16,367 bases of DNA from a virus (IMGVR_UViG_3300043353_000054:1-16367), one strand, 5' to 3'; positions 1-16,367 are shown, counted from the first letter of the stretch. Notes: generated by a model not told the origin, from the sequence alone. A program made the numbers and translations.

Positions 1-127
1 AGCCGCAGCAGCGGGCCTGGTCGTGTACCCGCCCACCCAGGACGTACGCCTGGGGTACGAGAACGACAACCAGCGCGGCGACGAGCTCGCAACCCACATG
101 ACCGGGCCCGCCGCCCATCAGTGGGAC
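1..127 (+). repeat. Terminal overlap, copy 1 (identical to 16241-16367)
   Basis: Base-by-base comparison of both window ends shows 127/127 identity. Confidence 0.97.
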
Positions 128-1831: not shown

Positions 1832-2272
1832 TCACCGCGGCGTCACGAACACCCGCAGGCCCGCACGCGGCGCCTGACCCTTGCGGTACCGGGTCGGCCC
1901 CCACGGGCCCACCTGCAGCAGCCCGTCAGCCGCCAGTTGCCGCACGCCGGCACGGTCCGTGCCGAGCAGCCGAGCAGCCTCGTCGAGCGTCAGCAGCACC
2001 GGCACCGCGTACGCCAGGCGTACGTCTGGCGCAGGGGGGCCAACGTCAGACGCCGCCTGGCGTACGACAGACGTACTAGCACCCGCCGCCGACACCCGCG
2101 CCGTCGACGGGATCGACCAGTTTCCCCGCTCGTCCTTCACCGCCCCCTCGATCCGCCCCTCAGCCAGGTACCGCTGCATCGTGCGGTCCGCGATCTCGTG
2201 CAGCGCGCCGTACTGCGACCGCGTCAGCATCACCTCGTGCTCGTACGCCTGGCGTACGTCTGGCGTGCTCAC
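1832..2272 (-). CDS. Tandem-HTH DNA-binding protein (two excisionase/MerR-type HTH modules), 146 aa; candidate recombination directionality factor or regulator
   Basis: GTG 2272 sits in a GTGA overlap with the upstream stop (alternative ATG 2230). Two related modules are PDVRQAYEHEVMLTRSQYGALHEIADRTMQRYLAEGRIEG and PDVRLAYAVPVLLTLDEAARLLGTDRAGVRQLAADGLLQVG. The upstream part of listed ORF 1832-2557 is R/P/A-rich shadow. Confidence 0.7.
   Translation of the reverse strand: MSTPDVRQAYEHEVMLTRSQYGALHEIADRTMQRYLAEGRIEGAVKDERGNWSIPSTARVSAAGASTSVVRQAASDVGPPAPDVRLAYAVPVLLTLDEAARLLGTDRAGVRQLAADGLLQVGPWGPTRYRKGQAPRAGLRVFVTPR
2008..2031 (-). repeat. 24-bp motif copy A (17-bp perfect palindrome CGTACGCCAGGCGTACG plus TCTGGCG)
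   Basis: Read directly. Identical to 2242-2265 except the central base. Translated on the minus strand as PDVRLAY. Confidence 0.9.
2242..2265 (-). repeat. 24-bp motif copy B (17-bp perfect palindrome CGTACGCCTGGCGTACG plus TCTGGCG)
   Basis: Read directly. Lies 234 bp from copy A. Translated on the minus strand as PDVRQAY. Confidence 0.9.
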
Positions 2273-2478: not shown

Positions 2479-2687
2479 GAGGTGGCCTCCCACGCGTCAG
2501 CGAACACCTCGAGTGCCTCGAGCGTCGTGGTGACGGATCGGTACAGGTGGCTGGCACCCATGTCGAGCGCCGTCACTTCGGCGATGCGGTCGAGGACCAA
2601 CGCGCACCCCGCGATGTCAGTCATCGTGAGCCCTGGGAAGCTGGCCCGTACCCTCGCGGCCACCAGCTCCGGCGCTGTCGTGCTCAT
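2475..2687 (-). CDS. Hypothetical small acidic protein, 70 aa
   Basis: Internal ATG 2687 of listed ORF 2475-2753, preceded on the minus strand by GAGGAA. Protein-like composition, whereas the overlapping plus-strand ORF 2482-2736 is Ser-rich shadow. Confidence 0.65.
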   Translation of the reverse strand: MSTTAPELVAARVRASFPGLTMTDIAGCALVLDRIAEVTALDMGASHLYRSVTTTLEALEVFADAWEATS

Positions 2688-2700
2688 GCGGTCGTTCCTC

Positions 2701-2732
2701 TCGATTCGGGATTCCGGAATCCGGAATCCGGT
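2701..2732. promoter_or_regulatory. Heptamer repeat / palindrome block in the int-orfA spacer (candidate operator/promoter)
   Basis: Four tandem heptamers: ATTCGGG ATTCCGG AATCCGG AATCCGG (2704-2731). Contains the perfect 14-bp palindrome GGATTCCGGAATCC (2709-2722). Lies in the only uncoupled gap (2688-2778) of the leftward arm, which is locally GC-poor. Confidence 0.45.
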
Positions 2733-2778
2733 CTGATGTCCGAAGACTCCCAATCGCCTGATTGGTAGTTGATGTCCG

Positions 2779-3660
2779 TCATGTCTGAACCCCGGCTAGG
2801 CGCCGGTGACGCTTGTCGACGGCCGCGCGCATCAGGTCCGCGTTCGGCTTCACGTACCGCTGGGTCGTGGCCAGCGAGCGGTGCCCGAGCAGCTGCTGGG
2901 CGACGATGATGTTCGGCTCGTCGTCGACGATGCCCGTGGCGAAGCTGTGGCGTAGCGCGTGCATCGTGTGGTGGCCGGGCAGCAGCCGGGCGACGAGCGT
3001 GCCGACCCACCGCGGCGACAGGTGCCCGTCACACGATCCCGGGAACAGGTAGCCGGCTGGCGCCTGGCGGATCGCCGTGGCGATCTCGGCCGGCAGCGGC
3101 AGGACCCGGTTCCGTGAGCCCTTCCCGTGCACTACGAGCGACGAGTCGAACAGGTTGTCGATCAGGTCGCCCGTGCTCACCTGCGCGACCTCCGCGCGGC
3201 GCATGCCCAGCTCGAAGGCCAGCTGCAGCATCAGCCGCTCACGCGGCGCGGCCGCGGCGACCGCCGCCTCGTACACGTCGTCGGGCGCCGGCCGCGGGAT
3301 CCCGTCAGAGGCTCGGATCGTGGGCAGGTCGCGCGCGACGTCGCTGGCGACCAGGCCGACGCCGTGCGCCCACCGGTAGAACCCGACCAGCGTCGAGCGG
3401 ACCATGCGCTGACGCTCGACCGACCACCGCGGCCGCAGCCGGCCGAGGTCGGCGTCCCACACCTCCGCGCCGAGCCACTCGACGAGGTCCGTCGTCGTGA
3501 GCTCCCACGGGCTCTCGGTCCGCTCGCGTGAGAGCTGCGCGAGGATGTCGCGCCGCGCCCTGATCGTCGAGACCGCGCGCCTGGCCGCGCGCTGCGCGGT
3601 CGACCAGCCATCGATGGGTACCTGCCACTCTGCGCGCACGTGGCGCTTCTGCATGCTCAT
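2779..3660 (-). CDS. int: Tyrosine integrase, 293 aa
   Basis: Catalytic signature is readable: GMRRAEV (Arg), HGKGSRNR (Lys), HALRHSFAT (His-x-x-Arg), LGHRSLATTQRY (His...Tyr). ATG 3660 is in an ATGA overlap with the upstream ORF. Adjacent to a tRNA-like attP core. Confidence 0.95.
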   Translation of the reverse strand: MSMQKRHVRAEWQVPIDGWSTAQRAARRAVSTIRARRDILAQLSRERTESPWELTTTDLVEWLGAEVWDADLGRLRPRWSVERQRMVRSTLVGFYRWAHGVGLVASDVARDLPTIRASDGIPRPAPDDVYEAAVAAAAPRERLMLQLAFELGMRRAEVAQVSTGDLIDNLFDSSLVVHGKGSRNRVLPLPAEIATAIRQAPAGYLFPGSCDGHLSPRWVGTLVARLLPGHHTMHALRHSFATGIVDDEPNIIVAQQLLGHRSLATTQRYVKPNADLMRAAVDKRHRRLAGVQT

Positions 3661-3866
3661 GCCCCACCCATCGGCCCGCCGGCCTCACGCTGCAGGAGGT
3701 CAGCCGCCGCGTACTGCAGTCGGATCGAGAGGTCGATTGCCGTGTCGGGGCTGAGCCAGATCCACTCGTCGCCGACCTGCAACTGCAGGTGCGGTACGCC
3801 GAACGAGTCGGCGACGGTGTAGAGGTGCAATTCGACCGGTGGCCTGCCCCCGCCGTGCGCCCTCAT
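3657..3866 (-). CDS. Hypothetical protein, 69 aa, between repressor and integrase
   Basis: ATG 3866 in an ATGA overlap with the repressor stop; its own stop is in an ATGA overlap with the int start. Protein-like composition (ELHLYTVADSFGVPHLQLQVGDEWIWLSPDTAIDL). Confidence 0.6.
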   Translation of the reverse strand: MRAHGGGRPPVELHLYTVADSFGVPHLQLQVGDEWIWLSPDTAIDLSIRLQYAAADLLQREAGGPMGGA

Positions 3867-4258
3867 GCGCCGAGCACCCAGCCATCACGCGAGGGTGCAG
3901 AACCGGAAGACCTGCAGGTCAGACGCCGCCCGGCGTTTCGCGCGAATATCCGCCGGACGACCGTCCAGAAGGTTGGGGGTTCGAGTCCCTTCGGGCGCAC
4001 AGCAGGGCCCTCGTCGTCACGACGGGGGCCCTCGTCGTTCAACCAGTCCAGCGACACGCCCGTGGCGAGCGCCCAAGCGATGAGGACGGGGCGCCGCGGT
4101 TCGCGCTCGCCACCCTCGTACCCCGCGATCGACCGTCGCGACAGCCCTGTCGCCTCGCCGAGCTCGGTCTGCGAGAGGCCGCTGACCTCACGCGCCTTCC
4201 GAAGCCTGTCAGTGAGCGTCCAGGCTGGGACTGTCCCCTGCACCGTTACCTGCGTCAT
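3863..4258 (-). CDS. XRE-family HTH repressor, virion form 131 aa, with C-terminal extension read through the attP core
   Basis: ATG 4258 (the listed ORF start 4285 is a TTG). HTH: LSQTELGEATGLSRRSIAGYEGG...LIAWALATGVSLDWL. Residues ..AVRPKGLEPPTF.. are the antisense reading of the tRNA-like segment at 3975-3999. Divergent from the HTH gene at 4353. Confidence 0.85.
   Translation of the reverse strand: MTQVTVQGTVPAWTLTDRLRKAREVSGLSQTELGEATGLSRRSIAGYEGGEREPRRPVLIAWALATGVSLDWLNDEGPRRDDEGPAVRPKGLEPPTFWTVVRRIFARNAGRRLTCRSSGSAPSRDGWVLGA
3965..3999 (+). other. Candidate attP common core: 3' fragment of a tRNA (variable loop, T arm, acceptor 3' strand, discriminator)
   Basis: AGGTT-GGGGG-TTCGAGT-CCCTT-CGGGCGC-A: a 5-bp T stem (3 GC + 2 GU), a canonical 7-nt T loop and a 7-nt acceptor strand. 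No matching acceptor 5' strand, D arm or anticodon arm upstream. The left boundary is approximate. Confidence 0.7.
4005..4031 (+). terminator. Strong hairpin immediately 3' of the tRNA-like core (would serve as tRNA terminator after integration)
   Basis: GGGCCCTCGTCG / CGACGGGGGCCC forms a 12-bp stem (11 WC + 1 GU) with a 3-nt loop, followed by TCGTCGTTC. Lies inside the repressor ORF on the opposite strand. Confidence 0.5.
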
Positions 4259-4352
4259 GTGCGCAACGTTACACGGTCTGCGCAACCTTGCTCAGGGCAA
4301 CACGCGCCGATGTGCTTGGCGAACGTTGCTCAACTGTGGCAAGGTTCGCCGG
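4259..4352. promoter_or_regulatory. Divergent repressor/cro-like control region with four operator-like repeats
   Basis: GCGCAACGTTACA (4261-4273), GCGCAACCTTGCTC (4280-4293), GGCGAACGTTGCTC (4318-4331) and, inverted, GGCAAGGTTCGCC (4338-4350). TAACGT (minus strand, 4271-4266) lies 7 nt before ATG 4258, consistent with a leaderless repressor mRNA. Confidence 0.6.
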
Positions 4353-4544
4353 ATGAACGATGATGCACTGATGGCGACCCGTGAGGTCGCGGAGCGGCTA
4401 GGCGTCTCGATCGCCACCGTGAACCGCATGGCTAAGGACGGCCGGCTCACGCCGGCCCTGCGCACGCCCGGAATCCGTGGCGCCCACCTCTACGACCGGA
4501 ACAAGGTCGAAGCCCTCGAGCAAGAGATGAGGACGGCGCCGTAG
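4353..4544 (+). CDS. Cro-like / excisionase-family HTH protein, 63 aa
   Basis: Internal ATG 4353 of listed ORF 3789-4544. ATREVAERLGVSIATVNRMAKDGRL is a typical excisionase/MerR-type HTH. Divergent from the repressor. Confidence 0.8.
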   Translation: MNDDALMATREVAERLGVSIATVNRMAKDGRLTPALRTPGIRGAHLYDRNKVEALEQEMRTAP

Positions 4545-4560
4545 TAGCGGCGCCGTCCTC
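4529..4560 (+). terminator. Perfect 13-bp stem hairpin spanning the stop codon of the cro-like gene
   Basis: GAGGACGGCGCCG (4529-4541), loop TAGTAG, CGGCGCCGTCCTC (4548-4560). The TAG stop (4542-4544) sits in the loop. No U-tract, so it could be an attenuator or an RNA/protein binding site rather than a terminator. Confidence 0.5.
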
Positions 4561-4573
4561 CGGGATCTCAAAG

Positions 4574-5437
4574 ATGAACGCTAGTCCAGAGTCGGGCCAG
4601 CCGGACAGAACCCGCAAGGGTGACCCCGGCGTGTCCCGCGAACGCACCGCGCTCAACCCCGACGAGCTGCGTGCCCTGTTCGGCTCGAAGCCCAAGGCCC
4701 GCATGCCGAAGGGACGTGAGCGGCGTCGTCGACCAGCCAAGACCCCGCACGCGGGCTGGAAGACCAACCAGCTGATCCTCGCCCTGTCGCGTGCGGGCTG
4801 GGGTGAGCTCGCCGGCCACGACGCGCGCGGTCTGCGCGCGGTCCTCGATGCCGTCGCGGCCAAGATCGTCGACCACCGCATGGGGCGCGCGTTCTCGACG
4901 ATCCCCGAGATCGCGGCCGCGGCCGGCTACGGCCACACCTGGACGCAGATCAAGCTCACCGAGCTCGACGAGATCGGGTTCATCGACTGGCGACGCGGTG
5001 GGCTCAAGCCCGGCCGCGGCCACGGTCGGGAGCGGTCGTTCTTCATCGTGAACCGGCACGCGCTCGTCGAGGCGATCGCCGCCGCGAAGGCACTGCGCGG
5101 CCCGGTCATCACCGAGCACGTCGCCGAGTGCATCCGACGCCTGCGAGAGCAGCGCCTCAAGTGGCTCCGAGCCCGCTACGCGAAGCGAAAGCCCAGGTCA
5201 GAACAGGACCCACCCACTGGTAGCCACTCTCTTCGTACCTCAGGGGAGTCGGTACGCGAACCCTCACCTGAGGGGGCCAGCGACTACTTCAAACAGCTGC
5301 ACGCCAGCGGACCAGCACCCGACGAGTGCGAGCACGGATACGCCAGCGCGCTCTCCTGCGCGTGGTGCAAGAAACAGCCACACGGAGCCGGCTCCGCCGG
5401 CGCCCAGACGATGAGAGGCGGTGCGGCCCGTGGTTAA
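4574..5437 (+). CDS. Winged-helix DNA-binding protein, candidate replication initiator, 287 aa
   Basis: ATG 4574. STIPEIAAAAGYGHTWTQIKLTELDEIGFIDWRRGG reads as helix-turn-helix plus wing. It is the only large early gene, and no polymerase, helicase or primase is present. C-terminal CEH...CAWC cluster. The function is inferred. Confidence 0.7.
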   Translation: MNASPESGQPDRTRKGDPGVSRERTALNPDELRALFGSKPKARMPKGRERRRRPAKTPHAGWKTNQLILALSRAGWGELAGHDARGLRAVLDAVAAKIVDHRMGRAFSTIPEIAAAAGYGHTWTQIKLTELDEIGFIDWRRGGLKPGRGHGRERSFFIVNRHALVEAIAAAKALRGPVITEHVAECIRRLREQRLKWLRARYAKRKPRSEQDPPTGSHSLRTSGESVREPSPEGASDYFKQLHASGPAPDECEHGYASALSCAWCKKQPHGAGSAGAQTMRGGAARG

Positions 5438-6483: not shown

Positions 6484-6834
6484 ATGGACCAGAACCCTTG
6501 GCAGCCGACACTGCCCGGGCTGACCCTGGGCGCGACCGACGTCGCCGGCGGATCCCCACTGACGGTCGCCGCTCAGGCCACGATCGAGGCGTTGGAGGCC
6601 GCTGGGCTGCTCGAGCCGCGCCACACCCTTGCCGTCCAGCTCGTGCTGACGTTGGCCAGCTCGATCGACTCGAACCTTCGCCATGGTGGGAAGGTCACCG
6701 TCGCGGTCGCCCAGGCGGCACGCCAACTCCAGGACGCGCTGGCCGCACTGCCGGTCCCGGCTGTCGGGGACGTCGACCCGTTGGCGGTGTTCCTCGGGGA
6801 GCGTGCACGGATCGGGCGGGAAGTCCTGGCGTGA
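6484..6834 (+). CDS. Terminase small subunit (putative), 116 aa
   Basis: ATG 6484 preceded by GGAG. Its stop is in a GTGA overlap with the large terminase start. Helical, Leu/Ala-rich. The call rests mainly on position. Confidence 0.6.
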   Translation: MDQNPWQPTLPGLTLGATDVAGGSPLTVAAQATIEALEAAGLLEPRHTLAVQLVLTLASSIDSNLRHGGKVTVAVAQAARQLQDALAALPVPAVGDVDPLAVFLGERARIGREVLA

Positions 6835-8228
6835 CGCCGCTGGGAGCGGCATACGCCACCGCGCGGGACCCGAACGCACGCACCATGGGCCCGCTCGTCG
6901 CGCACCTGGCCGCCCAGCTCGGCACCAACCTGATGCCCTGGCAGCGCTACGTCGCTGACGTCGCCCTCGAGCTGCACCCCGACGACCCGGGCCGGTGGCG
7001 CTACCCCACGGTCATCGTGACCGTCCCGCGCCAGTCCGGGAAGACGACGCTGCTACGGGCTGTGGCGTTGGACCGGTGCCTGACCCGGGCTCGGACCCGG
7101 GTGTTCATGACCGCGCAGACCGGCAAGGACGCGCACACCCGCTGGAAGGACACCGTCGAGGTCATCGAGCGGTCCGCGTTCGGGCCGCACGTGAAGGTCA
7201 ACCGGGCCGCCGGCGCACCGACGTTCACCCTGCCGAACGCGTCCCAGGTCCGCGCGTTCGCGCCCACGCCGAAGTCGATCCACGGCGAGACACCGCACCT
7301 GGTCATGGTCGACGAGGGCTGGGCCTTCGACGCCGCCCAGGGCGAGGACCTGATGGGCGCGATCCGGCCCGCGCAGATCACCCTGCCCGACCGTCAGCTC
7401 TGGATCGTCTCGACCCGCGGGTCCATGGACTCCACGTTCCTGGACGCGTGGATCGACGCCGGCCGCCTCGCGACCACCGACCCCGGGGCCGCGGTCGCCT
7501 ACTTCGAGTGGTCCGCACCTGAGGGCGCGGACGCCTACGACCCCGACACGTGGGCGTTCCACCCGGCCTTGGGGCACACGATCACCCGTGACGACCTCGC
7601 CGCCGAGGCCGCCGAGGCGTCCCGCGGCGTGTGGGAGCGGGCGTTCATGAACCGGCGCACCATGACCCTGGAATCGATCATCGACCTGGACCAGTGGGAC
7701 CAGCTCGAGGACCTCGACATGGTCCCGCCGGCCCGGGTCCCGATCCTCGGCTACGACGCGGACCGTGACGGCGCGACCGTGTACGCGGCCTGGTGGGACC
7801 AGCAGCGCGTCACGGTCCGCACCGTCGCGACCGGGCCGGGACCCGCGTGGCTCGTCGAGACGGTGCCGGCCCTGGTCGACCGGCTGCGCCCCGACCACGT
7901 CATGGCCGACGACGGTGGGCACGCCCGGTCCGTGACCGAGGATCTACGCCGCGCCGGCCTGCTGATCGACACGGTCGCCGGCAGGGACTTCGGGACGATG
8001 TGCTCGAGCCTGCTTCGCCTGGCCCGCTCCGGGCGCATCACCCACGACGGGTCGCCCGAGCTGCGGGCGGCGTGGGCCGGCGCCGCGCTGAAGTTCGTCG
8101 GGGACCAGGAGGCGTTCGACCGGCGCCGCGCCCGCACCCCGCAGCACGCCCTGCTCGCCGTGGCCGCCGCGGTCCGTGGCCTGACGAACGGCCCAGAGTC
8201 CCTGGGCGCACCCGATGTGAGGTTCTGA
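6831..8228 (+). CDS. Terminase large subunit, 465 aa
   Basis: GTG 6831 in a GTGA overlap. Walker A VPRQSGKTT, Walker B LVMVDEGW. Appropriate size and position. The first 111 codons of listed ORF 6498-8228 overlap the small-terminase gene and are R/G/P shadow. Confidence 0.92.
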   Translation: MTPLGAAYATARDPNARTMGPLVAHLAAQLGTNLMPWQRYVADVALELHPDDPGRWRYPTVIVTVPRQSGKTTLLRAVALDRCLTRARTRVFMTAQTGKDAHTRWKDTVEVIERSAFGPHVKVNRAAGAPTFTLPNASQVRAFAPTPKSIHGETPHLVMVDEGWAFDAAQGEDLMGAIRPAQITLPDRQLWIVSTRGSMDSTFLDAWIDAGRLATTDPGAAVAYFEWSAPEGADAYDPDTWAFHPALGHTITRDDLAAEAAEASRGVWERAFMNRRTMTLESIIDLDQWDQLEDLDMVPPARVPILGYDADRDGATVYAAWWDQQRVTVRTVATGPGPAWLVETVPALVDRLRPDHVMADDGGHARSVTEDLRRAGLLIDTVAGRDFGTMCSSLLRLARSGRITHDGSPELRAAWAGAALKFVGDQEAFDRRRARTPQHALLAVAAAVRGLTNGPESLGAPDVRF

Positions 8229-8415: not shown

Positions 8416-9612
8416 ATGGGACTCAGGCAACGGGTCAAGGCCGGTGCGGCACCGCCGCCAGCACCGTCCCCCCGGTCCGGGTACCTCGGCACCGGGTACG
8501 CGTCCCCCTGGTCGGACAACTCGAACCTGATCGACATCACGTTCGACGAGCTGTTCGGCCCGACCGAGGACACCCTGAACCGGGGCGTCTCCCGCGACGA
8601 GGCGATGTCCCTGGGCGTCGTGGCCCGCGCCCGCAACGTGGTTGCCCCCACGATCGCGCGTCTGCCGCTTCCCGCGCAGGACACAGCCGGGCCCCGCAAC
8701 GAGTCCGCGTTCGACTTCCTGCGCCAGCCTGAGAACGATCCGTCGTGGATCCGCCCCGGGTTCGTCACCTACCTGTGGACCGTGGACGCGATGATGTTCT
8801 ACGGGCGGGCCTGGTGGTGGGTCACGCAACGCTACGCCGACACCCGCGCCCCCCGATCGTTCCGGTGGGTCCCCGAGTGGGACGCCCGCCTGATCAACGG
8901 TCGCCTGGTCGGGCTGCTGTCCGACGACTCCGTGCACATCAGCGACGCGGACACGGTCAGGATCGACGCACCCCACGAAGGTGTCCTGAACTACGCCCGC
9001 CGCGAGCTGAACATGGCCCGCTCCCTGGACAGGTCCGCCGCCTACACCGCAGACAACCCGGTACCCGCTATCAACCTCCAGGAGCAGCCCGGCGTCGGAC
9101 CGGCCCACCGCCTCACCGAGAGCGAGACGGACAACCTGGTCTCGAAGTGGCGTGCCGCCCGCCGCGCCGGGAAGGTCGTGTCCTACACGCCGGCGTCCGT
9201 CAAGCCCGAGGTCCTGGGCCTGAACGTCGAACAGCTGCTCATCGAGGGCCGCAAGTACTCCGCCTTGCAGGTAACCCGGGCCATGAACGTGCCCGCGTGG
9301 GTCACCGACGTCGCCCTGGAGGGCTCGTCCATCACCTACGCGAACGTCGCGTCCCGCTCGAGGGAGCTCGTGGACTTCGGCCTCATGCCGTACCTGTCCG
9401 CGATCGAGGCCCGCCTGTCCGCGGACGACGTCCTACCGCGCGGCGTGTGGTGCCGGTACGACCTGACCGAGCTGCTGCGCGGGGACTTCGGGCAACGCAT
9501 GGCCGACTACAAGGCCGCCCTGGACGCCGGCGTCTACACCCTCGAGCAGCTCCAGCAGATGGAGCACGGCCCCGCCTACGTGGCCGAACCCGCACCCCCA
9601 CCGGAGTCGTGA
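8416..9612 (+). CDS. Portal protein, 398 aa
   Basis: Position between terminase and protease-capsid, and appropriate size. EAMSLGVVARARNVVAPTIARLPL resembles the conserved N-terminal helix region of HK97-type portals. Confidence 0.85.
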   Translation: MGLRQRVKAGAAPPPAPSPRSGYLGTGYASPWSDNSNLIDITFDELFGPTEDTLNRGVSRDEAMSLGVVARARNVVAPTIARLPLPAQDTAGPRNESAFDFLRQPENDPSWIRPGFVTYLWTVDAMMFYGRAWWWVTQRYADTRAPRSFRWVPEWDARLINGRLVGLLSDDSVHISDADTVRIDAPHEGVLNYARRELNMARSLDRSAAYTADNPVPAINLQEQPGVGPAHRLTESETDNLVSKWRAARRAGKVVSYTPASVKPEVLGLNVEQLLIEGRKYSALQVTRAMNVPAWVTDVALEGSSITYANVASRSRELVDFGLMPYLSAIEARLSADDVLPRGVWCRYDLTELLRGDFGQRMADYKAALDAGVYTLEQLQQMEHGPAYVAEPAPPPES

Positions 9613-16224: not shown

Positions 16225-16367
16225 TGGCGATCGGAGACAAAGCCGCAGCAGCGGGCCTGGTCGTGTACCCGCCCACCCAGGACGTACGCCTGGGGTACGA
16301 GAACGACAACCAGCGCGGCGACGAGCTCGCAACCCACATGACCGGGCCCGCCGCCCATCAGTGGGAC
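16224..16367 (+). CDS. 5' part of the junction-spanning minor tail gene (continues at base 2 after circular closure)
   Basis: ATG 16224 overlaps the upstream TAA (TAATG). GGAG at 16210-16213. MAIGDKAAAAGLVVYPPTQDVRLGYEN... runs off the window end in frame with 2-322. Confidence 0.7.
   Translation, partial: MAIGDKAAAAGLVVYPPTQDVRLGYENDNQRGDELATHMTGPAAHQWD
16241..16367 (+). repeat. Terminal overlap, copy 2 (identical to 1-127)
   Basis: Same comparison. The overlap stops exactly at the window end, typical of a circular-contig overlap. Confidence 0.97.

Follow-up and report, generated by a model that had tools for sequence, protein, structure and literature searches.

The stretch of DNA analysed here, referred to throughout as the window, comprises 16,367 nucleotides of viral sequence with a G+C content of 70.6%. 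Bases 1-127 are an exact repeat of bases 16241-16367, so the contig is a circular assembly of a genome of 16,240 bp with an assembly overlap of 127 bp. An independent assembly of the same phage (SRR35183086) is 100% identical and colinear, and in both assemblies the repressor gene rep is intact, as in the unintegrated form. Besides the genes for the large terminase and the portal, further plus-strand open reading frames with coding-type codon bias are taken to be the other virion and lysis genes. The features referred to below are the following.

1832-2230, minus strand: 132-aa HTH_17 protein with an excisionase/MerR-like fold
2779-3660, minus strand: int, 293-aa tyrosine integrase without arm-binding domain, predicted to go to attR on integration
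3657-3866, minus strand: orf69, 69-aa protein, coupled by ATGA to the stop of rep and the start of int
3863-4258, minus strand: rep, virion form, 131-aa XRE/HTH_3 repressor (phrog_2328), homologue of Angel/BPs gp33
3866-3967, minus strand: 34-codon C-terminal extension of rep, WTVV...DGWVLGA, predicted to be lost on integration
3965-3967, minus strand: rep codon 98, TGG (Trp), predicted to become TGA on integration
3966-3999, plus strand: putative attP common core, identical to the last 34 nt at the 3' end of tRNA-Arg(ACG)
3968-4258, minus strand: rep codons 1-97, predicted prophage form ending ..KGLEPPTF, kept with the promoter at attL
4004-4032, plus strand: stable GC-rich hairpin with a 14-bp stem, directly 3' of the core
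4259-4352: 94-bp control region between rep and the cro-like gene, with four 12-bp operator-like motifs
4261-4272, 4280-4291, 4318-4329 and 4339-4350 (the last inverted): copies of the operator-like motif GSSSAACSTTRC, from a motif scan
4353-4544, plus strand: divergent gene for a 63-aa HTH_17/MerR/excisionase-like protein, at the place of gene 34 (cro-like) in BPs
6498-8228: large terminase
8416-9612: portal

Rep carries an HTH_3 domain in residues 19-73 (E 7e-13) and matches phrog_2328, a transcriptional repressor family, over residues 1-105 (E 1e-26); an alignment of this gp33-type family contains an invariant VR..G.EP.TF block. As the first-pass annotation of this DNA had stated, the XRE reading frame of 131 codons runs from 4258 to 3863 antisense through a tRNA element, across which it reads ..AVRPKGLEPPTFWTVV.., and the ATGA overlaps proposed to couple rep, orf69 and int are indeed present, at 3863-3866 (rep stop and orf69 start) and at 3657-3660 (orf69 stop and int start). 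At the gathering cutoff of 27.1 bits, Int matches only the catalytic domain PF00589 and no arm-binding domain family, which fits the armless integrases of integration-dependent immunity systems (PMC6109161). Its C-terminus, ..RLAGVQT, shows no recognisable tag; the corresponding ends in its relatives are ..TASA, ..KGTA, ..WAA and ..IAS, and published tags are diverse.

The genome contains four matches to the operator-like motif, all within the control region, against 0.04 expected, the motif having been defined post hoc. A consensus scan of 2600-4700 for sigma-70 promoters and intrinsic terminators found nothing. HTH_17 is present in the product of the divergent gene as well as in the protein encoded at 1832-2230; the Angel gene in the position of the former was first annotated as a recombination directionality factor, and BPs gene 34 is equally ambiguous. 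Both HTH_17 proteins of the window could be recombination directionality factors, which are absent from the canonical system.

The tRNA-Arg(ACG) 3' end within rep

The stretch 3975-3999 had been read as the T stem, T loop, acceptor 3' strand and discriminator of a tRNA, with the 5' half absent upstream; the sequence is as written there, and ARAGORN finds zero complete tRNAs in the window. The full core at 3966-3999 additionally takes in the 3' strand of the anticodon stem and the variable loop, with the whole T arm. A 25-mer scan of 185,579 genomes, one per species, in which G or A was allowed at one acceptor position, returned at least 120 loci. Among the matches listed, 3966-3999 is reproduced exactly in complete tRNA-Arg(ACG) genes from Cellulomonas, Georgenia and some Microbacterium, which read GCGCCCGTAGCTCAATGGATAGAGCATCTGACTACGGATCAGAAGGTTGGGGGTTCGAGTCCCTTCGGGCGCA. 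Every actinobacterial tRNA-Arg(ACG) match listed has its left boundary at 3966, and two species, C. edaphi and C. cellasea, extend the identity to 4004 (39 nt, 3966-4004). The actinobacterial tRNA with a matching 3' end for which the first-pass annotation had proposed a search is hence tRNA-Arg(ACG), over 34-39 exact nucleotides. The 5' half of the host tRNA-Arg, which would adjoin the core at 3966 in the predicted attL, ends ..GAGCATCTGACTACGGAT.

These sequence comparisons confirm that the match between core and tRNA is not due to chance. The core occupies rep codons 87-98, near the gene's 3' end, and the earlier reading of it as an attP-type core inside the repressor gene is supported both by the exact tRNA-Arg(ACG) identity and by the prophage junctions of relatives described below. 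The phage integrase would be expected to recombine at 3966-3999; no convincing arm-type repeats were found flanking this core. The best-matching tRNAs together with the G+C content make Cellulomonas or a near relative the probable host.

The hairpin at 4004-4032 has a predicted folding energy of -28.8 kcal/mol (z -5.2), and hairpins likewise follow the core of phage Barebow and native tRNA-Arg genes; in the rebuilt tRNA gene it probably stands in for the terminator. The opposite strand of the same segment encodes the DEGP..DEGP linker of Rep.

Two other loci were considered and set aside. L019 carries a partial tRNA copy, but the identity includes the TGA base, and it was not retained as an example of the same architecture. 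In L057 (Microbacteriaceae) a 38%-identical Int adjoins tRNA-Arg, but this is a different island, in which int reads away from an intact tRNA and which has no rep homologue.

The consequence of integration for rep depends on a single base. At the base 5' of the common CAGAAGG, the host tRNA has T, which gives antisense ..ACC TTC TGA, and the phage has C, at position 3965, which gives TGG (Trp98). When the C. cellasea tRNA-Arg is joined in silico to window 4000-4258, the predicted product is a Rep of 97 residues ending ..KGLEPPTF. The first-pass annotation had placed the truncation at residue 87-98 of 131: the truncation itself is supported, and the range contracts to exactly residue 97. Similarly, its open frame from the core to the ATGA stop holds, but counts 34 codons and not about 35. 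The in silico attL, encoding Rep-97, also agrees with the proposal that integration keeps the HTH domain and its promoter at one end and sends orf69-int to the other. In all virion-form relatives with the same core the corresponding codon is TGG or TGT. Relatives with a tRNA-Arg(ACG) core follow a precise rule: the tRNA sequence carried by the phage stops just short of the base with which a stop codon would arise.

The third-position G+C content (GC3) of rep falls from 0.83 in codons 1-86 to 0.72 in the last 36 codons, in agreement with the modest relaxation that had been counted by hand. By our estimate, a stop-free run of 34 random codons at the same G+C content would arise with a chance of about 0.5, so the extension is not significant by itself and its reality as a coding sequence is to be judged from comparative evidence.

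Prophages of relatives and the C-terminal end of Rep

Verified prophage junctions were found in three relatives, at tRNA-Arg(ACG), where the first-pass annotation had suggested that junctions be sought. In Curtobacterium sp. VKM Ac-1376, two copies of the core lie 17.7 kb apart in direct orientation. One is part of a complete tRNA-Arg(ACG) and is followed by Barebow-like DNA encoding a 109-aa Rep that ends ..GLEPPTF at the tRNA-derived TGA, and the second copy, a partial tRNA, adjoins an integrase that shares 42% identity with the window's. The other two junctions, from C. flaccumfaciens GCA_018598465 and a metagenome contig, show the 3' end of rep overlapping a complete antisense tRNA-Arg, beyond which, in the C. 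flaccumfaciens genome, host metabolic genes follow. In VKM Ac-1376, to judge from the sequence at the partial copy, the remnant there would give the excised form of Rep the end ..WSVVDQAA. For the window phage itself, the exact attL pattern had 0 matches in metagenome contigs, and no lysogen was found there; the pattern of phage flank plus core had three matches in metagenome contigs, all of the unintegrated form. A search of viral_contigs with Int returned no relatives.

A broader comparison was made with 76 Rep homologues taken from a collection of 5.8 billion proteins. Ten of the 76 stop exactly at a tRNA-antisense motif, eight of them at ..GLEPPTF, and four of these truncated homologues come from named isolate genomes, on contigs of 36-597 kb. 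The remaining 66 untruncated homologues mostly end in alanine (60/66), with Ala-Ala in 49/66, at an overall alanine frequency of 11%; the homologues being related by descent, these counts yield no true binomial probability. The comparison of prophage and virion C-termini that had been suggested earlier thus sets ends at a tRNA-antisense motif, mostly ..PPTF, against ends that are mostly alanine. In the sequences checked, the extensions vary in length from 5 to 65 residues and are mostly unalignable except at the very end, a pattern that speaks for selection acting on the terminus as such. Extensions such as ..DDLALAA and ..DDYALTA closely resemble what we take to be actinobacterial ssrA tags.

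The Rep of the window ends ..WVLGA, with L-G-A as the final three codons before the stop (3866-3874), whereas its close relatives end in LAA, LTA or LVA, the closest in ..WVLAA; to judge from these endings, LGA is an atypical variant of the ssrA-like LAA end. Other endings of the form L-small-A are LCA in L128 (GLCA) and LVA in P0002. Of the closest relatives, P0014 ends ..WTVVPAPGTWVLAA, and L130, whose Int is about 65% identical by our count from the alignment, has a Rep ending ..PPTFWTVVPAPGTWVLAA versus ..PPTFWTVV(+20 aa)DGWVLGA in the window, an alignment which indicates that the rep frame is used to its end in the window phage. In BPs gp33, the substitution A135E at the penultimate position stabilises the protein (PMC4557955). 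Since the window has LGA in place of LAA, and the deviating residue occupies this same penultimate position, its tag may be weak or inactive. The idea that the C-terminus is a degradation tag thus fares differently at two levels: for the family it is strongly supported by the conserved alanine ends, while for the window phage, with its LGA, the sequence lends it moderate support.

Proposed switch and alternative explanations

We consider it likely that the window is the complete circular genome of a small temperate siphovirus-type phage, with Cellulomonas or a close relative as its probable host, and that it carries a BPs-type integration-dependent immunity cassette in which recombination by Int at the tRNA core shortens Rep to a stable form. 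In the unintegrated genome, rep, orf69 and int would be read leftward as a single unit with coupled translation, its expression presumably driven by the promoter region at 4259-4352, and the 131-residue Rep with its ssrA-like ..WVLGA end would be unstable, presumably being turned over by host proteases. Recombination by Int would then take place between the core of 34-39 bp (3966-3999/4004) and the identical 3' terminus of the host's tRNA-Arg(ACG), and that tRNA would be rebuilt from its host 5' part and the phage core, followed by the phage hairpin 4004-4032. At attL, rep codons 1-97 and the promoter would remain together, and the host base would turn codon 98 from TGG into TGA; the tag-less 97-residue Rep should be stable, confer immunity and maintain it. 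The extension, orf69 and int would come to lie at attR, with neither promoter nor upstream translation, so that Int levels are proposed to be low and the prophage stable.

Several other explanations have to be weighed against this switch. The core might lie in rep and shorten Rep without the extension having any regulatory role, both forms being stable and active, the tag decayed and immunity independent of integration. The end in LGA where close relatives have LAA, LTA or LVA, the relaxed GC3 of the extension and its length, about 20 residues beyond that of the closest relative, speak for such decay, but the terminal WVL-x-A is in frame relative to P0014 and L132, L-small-A endings recur (as in L128), the extension is identical in two independent assemblies, and coupling to orf69 through ATGA depends on rep being translated to its end; we hold this explanation to be rather improbable. 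That the cassette is non-functional altogether, with an inactive Int or core and a phage that is lytic or only pseudolysogenic, would accord with the finding of unintegrated copies only and with an Int that has no recognisable C-terminal tag. However, int is intact, with a GC3 of 0.94 and a full match to the catalytic domain, and a perfect 34-39 nt match between core and tRNA would decay if unused, which leaves this explanation with very little probability. It is still harder to credit, and in our view extremely improbable, that the tRNA-like segment is a relic and that integration takes place elsewhere, for example in the spacer at 2688-2778: this spacer, which follows int, does contain a GGATTCCGGAATCCGGAATCC palindrome, but its fold is not unusual (z -1.3), for which it was rejected as an attP candidate, whereas the junctions of related prophages lie exactly at the tRNA core, and the core is common to two phages, Barebow and that of the window, that are otherwise unalignable.

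The reading frame between rep and int deserves separate consideration. The GC3 of orf69 is 0.87, a coding-type codon bias; its product matched no Pfam or PHROG family and had no tblastn match in 50,697 phage records. An AlphaFold model (pLDDT 81) consists of three strands and one helix, and no significant structural match to it was found in PDB or BFVD. A 74%-identical homologue is placed likewise in the cassette of L132, lying, with ATGA coupling, between an XRE repressor (..RQDSNLQPTDLWVLAA) and an integrase that both differ from those of the window. Since this repressor sequence implies a tRNA core other than that of the window, orf69 is retained amid a different Rep, core and Int, which suggests that it moves as a module of its own. 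L130 has a 10-codon mini-ORF between rep and int with ATGA overlaps at both ends, and L125 and L126 have unrelated Cys-rich frames of 62 and 52 aa there; ATGA coupling from rep through the bridging frame to int is kept in L125, L130 and L132, with short spacers in its place in L126. Across these cassettes, then, the presence of a bridging reading frame is conserved and its content variable. One might go further and regard orf69 and the unrelated frames in its position as a functional third component of lysogeny that acts on Int, in directionality or stability, or on the decision between lysis and lysogeny. On that reading it would be expressed from the unintegrated genome only, because its transcription and translation need read-through of full-length rep; we think such a role unlikely.

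Comparison with known integration-dependent immunity systems

The integration-dependent immunity switch was reportedly described in BPs by Broussard et al. in 2013. Its defining features are an attP core inside rep near its 3' end and codirectional rep and int genes with a divergent cro-like gene (PMC3694055), as well as a prophage repressor shorter than the virion form, an ssrA-like tag on virion Rep, an Int tagged for proteolysis, an armless Int with a simple attP, the absence of xis, cII and cIII, such that the switch consists of int, rep and cro, and the dependence of immunity and lysogeny on integration, virion-form Rep being unstable (PMC3694055, PMC4557955). In the window we find attP in rep, a shorter predicted prophage Rep, an armless Int, homology to gp33 and the gene layout, with int and rep on the minus strand and the 94-bp spacer before the plus-strand HTH_17 gene; orf69 between rep and int is the deviation from it.

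The likeness to the cluster G phages BPs, Angel and Halo, as asserted in the first-pass annotation for BPs-type phages, extends from layout to sequence. In a tblastn search of the 50,697 phage records, in which cluster G repressors were matched, Rep aligns to Angel gp33 with 41.9% identity (E 7e-12) over residues 1-97 only. Int and Angel gp32 share 42% identity (E 3e-54), their alignment beginning at Angel residue 62; the alignment to gp33-type proteins proposed earlier thus bore fruit. Angel gp33 holds the antisense tRNA-Arg end CAGAAGGTTGGGGGTTCGAATCCCTCCGGGCGCA, of the M. smegmatis type, in the same frame, reading ..GFEPPTF|CLGA.., and if stopped after PPTF its product would have 103 aa. 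The published BPs repressor is gp33^103 in the prophage and gp33^136 in the virion (PMC4557955), so that this length validates the logic applied to the junction. Integration removes 33-34 residues in either case (136 to 103 there, 131 to 97 predicted here), and both systems have the tRNA-Arg 3' end in the ..EPPTF frame, rep and int read leftward, a divergent small HTH gene, a short operator-bearing region and a start codon overlapping the rep stop. They differ in genome size (41 kb in cluster G versus 16 kb), in the 69-codon frame that the window has between rep and int, in the length of Int (398 aa annotated in Angel versus 293 aa), in the tag (..KAS versus ..LGA) and in the host, which is non-mycobacterial for the window.

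With respect to its meaning, the mechanism is already known and the finding raises no new question. Integration-dependent immunity gains a probable Cellulomonas phage and relatives of about 15-18 kb from metagenomes and Curtobacterium genomes, in which the Ala-rich C-terminal end is conserved and the remaining extension appears free to vary. The int-attP-rep module of about 1.6 kb with a defined attB, tRNA-Arg(ACG), might furnish integration vectors for Cellulomonas and Microbacteriaceae.

Such systems have also been reported from Mycobacterium clusters G, I1, N and P, from many Gordonia phages and from Streptomyces cluster BC. The proposal that the window carries the switch over to a minimal phage is not new, as this is already published for the 17-kb Gordonia cluster CW, in which GMA5 has an extra frame between int and rep (Pope et al., 2017; PMC5559632), and for small Bifidobacterium prophages with armless integration-dependent immunity (Mavrich et al., 2018; PMC6109161). 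Like the window phage, the Gordonia phages Jeanie, McGonagall, GMA5 and GRU3 of cluster CW (17.1-17.7 kb), SallySpecial and Rahul are small temperate siphoviruses with an int-rep-HTH cassette and a tRNA 3' end in rep. Their Rep proteins are 39-47% identical to that of the window over the HTH part and end ..SAA or ..HAA, and no DNA similarity was found between these phages and the window; the cluster CW core derives from tRNA-Lys (PMC5559632), unlike that of the window, and the core of SallySpecial and Rahul was seen only as a sequence different from the window's. The Bifidobacterium prophages Bb423phi2 and 689b-1, likened here by description only, are small and actinobacterial and have different hosts (PMC6109161). 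The closest isolated phage is Barebow (PQ868957, 18.3 kb), isolated on C. flaccumfaciens, with 51% identity in Rep and 41% in Int, in which the core lies inside gp19, whose annotation says no more than helix-turn-helix DNA binding protein. Its tRNA-Arg(ACG) core is read in the frame seen in the window and is followed by a hairpin, and attL and attR occur as predicted in prophages related to it; Barebow differs in one position of the acceptor stem, CGAGCGCA, which matches Curtobacterium, in having no reading frame between rep and int, and in an extension of 24 aa that ends ..RAS. What the window adds to these known systems is modest: a probable Cellulomonas host, relatives of 15-18 kb in Micrococcales, the stop-codon rule at the core boundary and the recurrent reading frame bridging rep and int.

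Genome ends and apparent exchange of modules

An exact 127-bp direct repeat terminates the sequence (window 1-127 = 16241-16367), so that the contig represents a circular assembly of a genome that is actually 16,240 bp long. The repressor homologues P0001-P0006 and P0043, together with those encoded in the repressor/integrase cassettes of L125 and L132, share up to 86% identity with the HTH domain encoded in the window; their genes contain a different tRNA core (read in antisense as ..RQDSNLQPTD..) and are accompanied by integrases different from that of the window. Evidently, phages exchange the HTH module with one another, and likewise the attP/int module.

The tRNA-Arg(ACG) gene as an integration target

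Among the matches listed, five further loci (L006, L019, L035, L041 and L046), found in Cellulomonas, Curtobacterium and an actinomycete MAG, carry partial copies of the tRNA-Arg(ACG) 3' end without the tRNA's 5' half and with different left boundaries; the integrase near the L019 copy shows 32% identity. Several unrelated elements seem to favour tRNA-Arg(ACG) as an integration hot spot. A match to the core was also found in the Microbacterium sp. 5N024 MAG (L081; NZ_JASGHZ010000001, 1280001-1288000), within a CRISPR array whose repeats, at least 20 in number, recur every 61 bp. One spacer of this array, TTGGGGGTTCGAGTCCCTTCGAGCGCACAGTA (at about 2535-2566 of L081), corresponds to the tRNA-Arg(ACG) 3' end (the attP core) together with 5 nt of flanking sequence, and may derive from an element bearing this core. 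The tRNA-Arg of this MAG itself (L033) is identical to the spacer at 29 of 32 positions, with differences confined to three of the last four bases, and the spacer is nearly self-targeting.

The region lost on integration and the sequence downstream of int

Several relatives encode CxxC...CxxC zinc-ribbon-like motifs, either in the repressor extension present only in the virion form or in a small ORF between rep and int:

Relatives with the motifs: P0012, P0015, L129
Small ORFs: L125 2373-2561; L126 10479-10637

These motifs suggest that the region lost on integration sometimes bears a folded domain, beyond a mere tag. Two features of the window lie downstream of int:

2688-2778: spacer after int, with the palindrome GGATTCCGGAATCCGGAATCC and, by inspection, an A+T content above that of its surroundings
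1832-2230, minus strand: 132-aa HTH_17 protein (Pfam domain match 30.9 bits, above the cutoff of 27)

The spacer may serve as a terminator, or as a site controlling the leftward genes that follow; fold prediction for 2688-2778 gave nothing unusual (z -1.3). Counting downstream from int along its strand, the HTH_17 gene is the third, and in L125 and L126 a comparable HTH protein is likewise encoded beyond int. The 132-aa protein of the window could be a recombination directionality factor, a component absent from canonical integration-dependent systems.
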